Positions 17,412-17,940 of a DNA stretch of 64,000 nucleotides are shown piece after piece. Position 1 is the first letter of the stretch; each line of letters starts with the position of its first letter. The position numbers and the translations under genes were made by a program. The stretch is from assembly GCA_044892525.1 (NCBI GenBank), contig CM097885.1, positions 25,608,001 to 25,672,000 on the forward strand, given 5' to 3'. Source of the stretch: Schmidtea polychroa (taxonomy: Eukaryota). Under the pieces are notes generated by a model. The model was not told where the DNA came from. It was given only the letters and a program-made list of their open reading frames with translations, and did no database searches.

Positions 17412-17940
17412 TTAATTTTTATTCATATATCTACAGAAAATATACATTATAACAACTCCAGTTGTAAGTTTTATATAGTTTTTCATTTTTCTTTTGATTT
17501 CATCAGTTTCTTTAAAATTGCAGGCCAGTTTATTTAATACACCCCATCCGCCATTGGCTTCTATCCATGGGGTAAACTTGGACTTGATTATCTAGAAATG
17601 AATATTATTAAAATATAGATTATAAAAGAAATCTTACTTCTAAAGACCAATGATAATAATGTTCTGAATCATGTTGACCTTTTGCAATGATTATCTTCAT
17701 GTAGGTGAATCCTACAATTATCCTTGTCCATTTCATGTCTTCATCGAAAAGACACTGAAATATTCTATTGAAGTAATACTTCTTGGTTTCCAGGGATTCC
17801 ATCTTCATCATCTGCTGATAATCGATATGTTCACCTTCAATGATTTGTTCGGTTCGATTGATCAGGAAATTGAGGCTGTCGACTATATTCGCGGTGACAA
17901 TTCCGTTTAGAACATTTTCCATAAAATTTGGTTGCGACAT
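17412..17940 (-). CDS. Viral Bcl-2-like protein (160 aa, 2 exons)
   Basis: BH1-like LFDEDMKWTRIIVGF. Intron 17592-17637 (GTAAGA...TTCTAG). Exon 2 has BH2 PWIEANGGW and a hydrophobic tail LTTGVVIMYIFC. Confidence 0.8.

Follow-up and report, generated by a model that had tools for sequence, protein, structure and literature searches.

Bcl2 homologues have been reported in adintoviruses and animal Polintons-Mavericks by Starrett et al. 2021 (PMC8502044), where Bcl2 is, as in the family described here, an accessory gene on a Maverick together with genes for pPolB, integrase, ATPase, capsid and protease. Bcl-2 cargo on such elements is thus already known. Here, in contrast to the adintovirus case, the gene is spliced and its host donor can be traced; it occurs in seven or more lineages of a single genome, and one sub-lineage has it at both ends of the element. 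The main text of PMC8502044 makes no mention of splicing, planarians or Schmidtea, and PMC11071296 makes no mention of Bcl. The Burro giant LTR retrotransposons of planarians also have Bcl-2 cargo on a mobile element, but there the BCL2-like domain lies inside a gag-env-pol polyprotein (PMC6431247), whereas here it is a separate gene. Adenovirus E1B-19K is likewise a Bcl-2-type protein, and it too is encoded close to an end of a linear genome whose replication is protein-primed (PMC7022251). Intact vertebrate Mavericks are described as intronless (PMC8097293), in contrast to the spliced Bcl-2 gene and the probable integrase intron found here. No account of a spliced Bcl-2 gene in a planarian Maverick was found in the literature within reach of our search, which excludes Repbase reports and subscription papers.

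The window, meaning the whole stretch of 64,000 nucleotides from Schmidtea polychroa that was analysed, contains a truncated Maverick and an adjacent, different one, referred to as elements A and B. The AT-rich genome with four large contigs, together with its Burro-type LTR element (PMC6431247), points to a freshwater planarian as host. The features are as follows.

12202..18800, minus strand: truncated arm of a Maverick of family A; similarity to all longer copies stops at 12202
17412..17591, minus strand: exon 2 of the Bcl-2 gene, 59 codons plus stop, encoding BH2 and, at the C-terminus, a predicted tail anchor flanked by basic residues
17592..17637, minus strand: intron of the Bcl-2 gene, 46 nt, GT-AG, phase 0
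17638..17940, minus strand: exon 1 of the Bcl-2 gene, 101 codons, ATG at 17940, with the N-terminal helix, a short loop, helix 2 and a BH1-like stretch
17967..17974, minus strand: TATA box of the putative promoter; in families A, B and C it lies 31-37 nt ahead of the ATG
17992..18003, minus strand: CCAAT word of the putative promoter; in families A, B and C it lies 58-69 nt ahead of the ATG, and family D has it upstream as well
18050..18800, no strand assigned: terminal inverted repeat of element A, with its tip at 18800; the inner border is approximate and was read from other copies
18727..18764, no strand assigned: three TGACGTCA (CRE/ATF-type) palindromes at 18727, 18745 and 18757, all within the terminal repeat, with 36 nt between the first and the tip
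18801..33713, no strand assigned: element B, a different Maverick/adintovirus that does not carry the Bcl-2 gene, with inverted repeats at 18797-19678 and 32808-33713

The family A arm encodes Bcl-2, an acidic ORF, a 139-aa ORF, a TBP-like protein, a packaging ATPase, a basic ORF, an integrase and a cut gene that we take, from gene order, to be that of the minor capsid protein. The window copy is without major capsid, protease and polymerase (pPolB) genes; at the level of the family, a double-jelly-roll capsid, a packaging ATPase, an adenain-type protease, an integrase and the protein-primed polymerase pPolB are present. Identity to other copies ends at the tip at 18800. When 20 elements were mapped over 20 kb, identical 6-bp flanks were found at both ends in 13 and the C-terminus of the polymerase was reached in 17. 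A 23-nt marker in exon 2 has 393 exact matches in the genome (control 0), to which close sister families may contribute, and the 20 copies picked as best matches are 99.6-100% identical over the gene. The carrier is a young, high-copy Maverick/Polinton family.

Element B has Pfam matches to DNA_pol_B_2, DJR-like, PLA2 and rve. Element A abuts the tip of element B's terminal repeat (18797-18810), apparently as the result of one Maverick inserting at the end of another. The window also lies within a 28.5-kb tandem duplication (1-7299 and 28485-35775; L028 and L029; 99.5-99.9% identity) that holds HSP70, the element A arm and element B.

Several further observations concern the gene content of the arm. 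The TBP-like gene (15229-15693) matches Pfam TBP with an E-value of 8e-15 and has a dN/dS of about 0.2 between families. The integrase gene (minus strand) is split at about 13430-13530 by an insert of the form GT(ATT)n...TTTTAG, which is flanked by a duplicated AGGT; the frame is kept in 24 of 24 stretches (39-882 nt), and the insert is absent in family D. This insert is probably a second intron. Two plus-strand frames (15874-16224 and 17033-17367) have no in-frame ATG, are preceded by an acceptor-like AG and give no Pfam match, and are probably further spliced accessory genes.

A second Bcl-2 gene is located at the far (polymerase) end in three of the 20 mapped elements. The idea that Bcl-2 usually occupies both terminal repeats was rejected on this count and on that of only two inward-facing pairs among 100 consecutive marker places. 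In the sub-lineage with the second gene (L081, L087, L088, L129/L130 and L139) the join always falls at the base that matches 17350, just past the 3' end of the gene, and this constancy points to one event that was then multiplied. Palindromic or deleted derivatives (L021-L027, L131-L138 and L141-L144) have long inverted arms with varied breakpoints and contain two Bcl-2 genes each.

Read without splicing, the frame from the ATG at 17940 ends at a stop at 17620, and an earlier note on this DNA had proposed that a 46-nt intron extends the gene. Enumeration of all GT-AG candidates leads to the same intron, which gives the longest product (160 aa). The other GT-AG pairs were rejected because their products are shorter and the 46-nt joint is the only one observed in sequencing runs. 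Four public runs (X1, X2, X3 and X5) were searched over 17000-18100. The exact joint 17591/17638 (46 nt skipped, ends CT..AC) is present in contigs of two of the four, X1 and X2, at depths of 46 and 18 and with 30 and 39 letters, respectively, on the shorter side of the joint; these two runs come from one study, their status as RNA is only guessed and their reads are not assignable to the window copy. The joint is absent from the contigs of X3 and X5 over the same region, and an X3 contig runs through the intron uninterrupted. X1 has intron-containing contigs beside the spliced ones, while in X2 the intron bin is without cover and poly(A/T) loose ends are present. An intronless genomic source of the junction is unlikely, since no intronless copy is found among 150 scored of 1966 candidates. 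In all 150 the exon 2 frame is open over 59-62 aa, and 141 of them share one protein sequence. The GT..AG pair sits at the identical codon border in 62 of 62 located exon pairs (repeated fetches of single places included), with intron lengths of 42-51 nt. Families E, F and G, just 33-42% identical to family A, have an intron at the same codon border, with a decayed donor in the G copy used, and the two exons abut without a gap when aligned to intronless homologues. The spliced two-exon Bcl-2 gene is confirmed as real.

The position of the gene had also been compared with that of E1B-19K and described as the first inward from a CRE-rich terminus. The latter part agrees with our data for family A, where Bcl-2 is the first gene from the CRE-bearing end, but it does not hold for sister family D, where it is the third from the end. 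In adenovirus, E1A precedes E1B. Compared with E1B-19K, the terminal position is not kept across sister families. Pfam Adeno_E1B_19K gives no match up to an E-value of 1 with either exon, the E1B-19K row in the ESM Atlas scores 0.86, below 0.9, and the nearest relative is a host gene. The likeness to E1B-19K is therefore one of position only.

The three TGACGTCA sites lie in an 860-nt upstream stretch, and none of 20000 shuffles reaches three, although the sites stem in part from a local duplication. In families A and C the first site stands 36 nt from the tip; no CRE sites were found upstream of the gene in families B or D. A reading of these sites as the promoter of the Bcl-2 gene is not supported, as they belong to the terminal repeat and the gene has its own putative CCAAT/TATA promoter. 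Elsewhere in the window the CCAAT word is found only before the 139-aa ORF.

The earlier note further argued that an anti-apoptotic gene implies a true infectious cycle in an invertebrate. That the Bcl-2 gene marks such a particle-mediated cycle today is in our view unlikely. The family does possess a double-jelly-roll capsid, packaging ATPase, adenain-type protease and protein-primed polymerase, which speak for it, and dN/dS for capsid and ATPase is 0.08-0.10 between families. On the other hand, the copies spread by integration with 6-bp duplications, and Maverick particles had not been observed as of 2021 (PMC8097293). In particular, a Burro-type LTR element of the same genome carries a Bcl-2 domain together with fusion-protein domains. 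As this is an element that must integrate, Bcl-2 cargo is no proof of infection and the conclusion of the note does not follow. A Bcl-2 gene cannot separate infection from intracellular transposition. The capsid genes are a better argument for infection than Bcl-2 and show past selection only. Maverick infectivity is not settled by the Bcl-2 finding.

The membership of the gene in the Bcl-2 family was examined with profiles, structure models and motifs. With exon 1 alone, Pfam Bcl-2 (PF00452) is matched with an E-value of 0.00097 and 20.1 bits, under the cut-off of 31.4, and exon 2 alone gives no Pfam match. Copies from sister families that are 72-84% identical, and in which the intron keeps the frame, score 32.5-34.5 bits over both exons and so clear the cut-off. 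A local profile from eight rows outside families A-C, whose alignment columns were built with the exons of the window present, scores 31.3 bits with exon 1 and 46.4 bits with exon 1 plus exon 2. Exon 2 in the correct frame therefore adds 15 bits. In either wrong frame it brings no gain (29.5-30.3 bits), and none of 300 shuffles scores above 13.0 bits. A profile with both exons as rows, searched against the PDB, finds Bax and Bcl-xL with nearly equal scores (E-values of 2e-7 to 3e-7), and BH2 is aligned to both. The best matches in the ESM Atlas are Bcl-2 clusters (0.91-0.93), with a recognition value slightly below the threshold. Protein databases gave only three unspliced exon-1 predictions and one representative, with no named or full-length relative.

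A model of exon 1 only (pLDDT 71) gives 40 Bcl-2 family rows among the 41 listed by Foldseek, with a best E-value of 0.27 and none at 0.001, and its top VIA match is unrelated to Bcl-2. The model of an intronless sister protein (pLDDT 73) is matched by Foldseek to Bcl-xL with a probability of 1.0 and an E-value of 0.005. Of its top 20 VIA rows, 19 are Bcl-2 family members (best Z 7.9), and Bak and Bok are among the matches.

The BH1-like region, the BH2 word and the hydrophobic tail described in the note are each found where it had placed them. BH1 reads W-T-R instead of W-G-R, with the arginine kept and the glycine and asparagine lost, so that the NWGR signature is not present. The tail of exon 2 is of moderate hydropathy (1.3-1.6, best 15-residue value 1.64) with basic flanks, and a hydrophobic tail is seen in every Maverick lineage in which exon 2 was read. 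The L-x-x-x-[GAS]-D motif, the defining mark of pro-apoptotic members (PMC3847314), is not found in helix 2 in a motif scan. Taken over several motifs, including BH2 and the tail, the protein belongs to the Bcl-2 family by sequence.

The nearest cellular relative is a single-copy host gene of the Bcl-2 family (G000:C1:268544056-268544484; L041/L060). It is the best cellular match of seven of seven Maverick lineages, with 62-93 bits against at most 40 for the other host genes tested; measured from the window gene, the Burro domain reaches 24 bits compared with 63 bits for the host gene. The host and Maverick proteins have the BH1 pattern W-[ST]-R in common. The host protein is 24% identical to that of the window, and its loop after helix 1 is 15 residues longer. 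The host gene has no intron at the Maverick site, and a splice-donor word GT follows directly after the BH2 tryptophan, the intron position of vertebrate BCL2. This GT is present in five of the eight host-like loci examined and in none of the mobile copies checked. The intron at the site where the host gene has none is found in six of the seven Maverick lineages examined, family D being intronless.

These data suggest that the Maverick Bcl-2 was likely taken from one host Bcl-2 gene. We infer capture through an mRNA because no mobile copy checked has the intron that follows BH2 in the host. In the AU test a single capture is neither demonstrated nor excluded (p-AU 0.17, or 0.095 with the LTR domain), and the tree does not fix the donor. 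On the most economical reading, capture came first and the new intron was gained afterwards in six lineages, family D being without it.

In family D (L061, L063 and L064) capsid and ATPase are 77-82% identical to those of family A and Bcl-2 only 26%; its Bcl-2 gene is intronless and nearer to the host gene (39%). It may represent a second capture or a module swap. Seven near-identical host-like Bcl-2 copies with both NWGR and a BH3 motif are present on one contig (L030-L036; G000:C4:89.9-90.8 Mb).

The explanation that we prefer, with some confidence, is that a high-copy Maverick/Polinton carries a spliced and selected Bcl-2-family gene, which it likely acquired from a single host gene and whose membrane-anchored product likely prevents death of the host cell during expression, copying and integration of the element. 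Most viral Bcl-2 proteins act through their groove (PMC7022251). The corresponding scheme would begin with capture of a host Bcl-2 through its mRNA, followed by gain of a new intron in most Maverick lineages. In an active element, Bcl-2 would then be made from a CCAAT/TATA promoter belonging to the gene itself, the predicted tail would insert into the mitochondrial or ER membrane and the groove would sequester the pro-death BH3 helices of the host. Anti-apoptotic action is likely because the BH3 killer motif is missing, the loop is short and a tail anchor is predicted. A short loop after helix 1 is seen in several viral pro-survival Bcl-2 proteins. Planarian Polintons are reported to be de-silenced in normal differentiation and repressed by SMEDWI-2 (PMC8532177), which would provide an occasion for a pro-survival role of the element's Bcl-2. 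Points against this explanation are the replacement of the BH1 glycine by threonine, a best PDB sequence match that is a Bax, tied with Bcl-xL, the Pfam score of exon 1 below the cut-off, the Foldseek E-values and unrelated top VIA match of the exon 1 model, a junction seen in two runs of one study that are guessed to be RNA, and a tree that does not fix the donor. The BH1 glycine of mammalian Bcl-2 is required for Bax binding, and its loss leaves a non-canonical role open.

Such a role, in which the Bcl-2 fold does not sequester BH3 helices canonically and serves in autophagy, in innate signalling or as a decoy for the host paralogue from which it derives, like some Bcl-2-fold proteins of poxviruses, is rather doubtful. 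The BH1 glycine is changed to serine or threonine in all seven Maverick lineages as well as in the host donor, one Atlas cluster has Poxv_Bcl-2-like on 11% of its members, and the poxvirus proteins provide a precedent (PMC7022251). The tail anchor is nevertheless kept, as is the BH1 arginine in six of the seven lineages, and NF-kB-inhibiting Bcl-2 folds are not found beyond poxviruses according to the same source. A protein that promotes cell death or membrane permeabilization, leading to release of particles, is highly improbable. It is suggested by the Bax at the top of the PDB matches, by a negligible margin, and by the Bak and Bok matches of the sister model, but the BH3 motif is missing, the inherited copies of the gene number in the hundreds, and one study at least shows it transcribed (the runs being guessed to be RNA).

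Selection on the gene was estimated as dN/dS exon by exon on natural copies. Between families A (window), B and C, exon 1 gives 0.05-0.17 at dS 0.7-3.6. Exon 2 gives 0.14-0.17 for A-C (p of about 1e-6), 0.28-0.33 for B-C and 0.47-0.50 for A-B, the last not being significant (p 0.11). In shifted-frame controls of exon 2, pS does not exceed pN in five of six cases. Purifying selection between sister families thus acts on exon 1 and exon 2 alike. That the gene is a neutral passenger or decayed host fragment at the end of the element is scarcely credible and largely refuted by the exon 1 values and by the conservation of intron site, promoter words and tail over lineages that are just 31-42% identical, even though the window copy of the element is truncated and dN/dS within the family, with very few changes, is about 0.8.

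The locus offers a testable case of capture of a host death regulator by a Maverick, with the donor gene, the loss of an intron and the gain of another in one genome, and it does so in animals for which RNAi is a routine method. As Maverick genes can be spliced, annotation from ORFs only misses cargo. More speculatively, and with distinctly low confidence, flatworm Mavericks may be a lineage of endogenous viruses that are nuclear and depend on splicing. They would have acquired a host Bcl-2 via its mRNA, given it a new spliceosomal intron and put it to work, alongside their own TBP-like gene, for the survival of adult stem cells in which they become active, with one sub-lineage selected for a double dosage via both terminal repeats. 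If this were true, an animal that regenerates would have in these several hundred near-identical copies an inducible reserve against cell death, with an influence on which of its cells survive.
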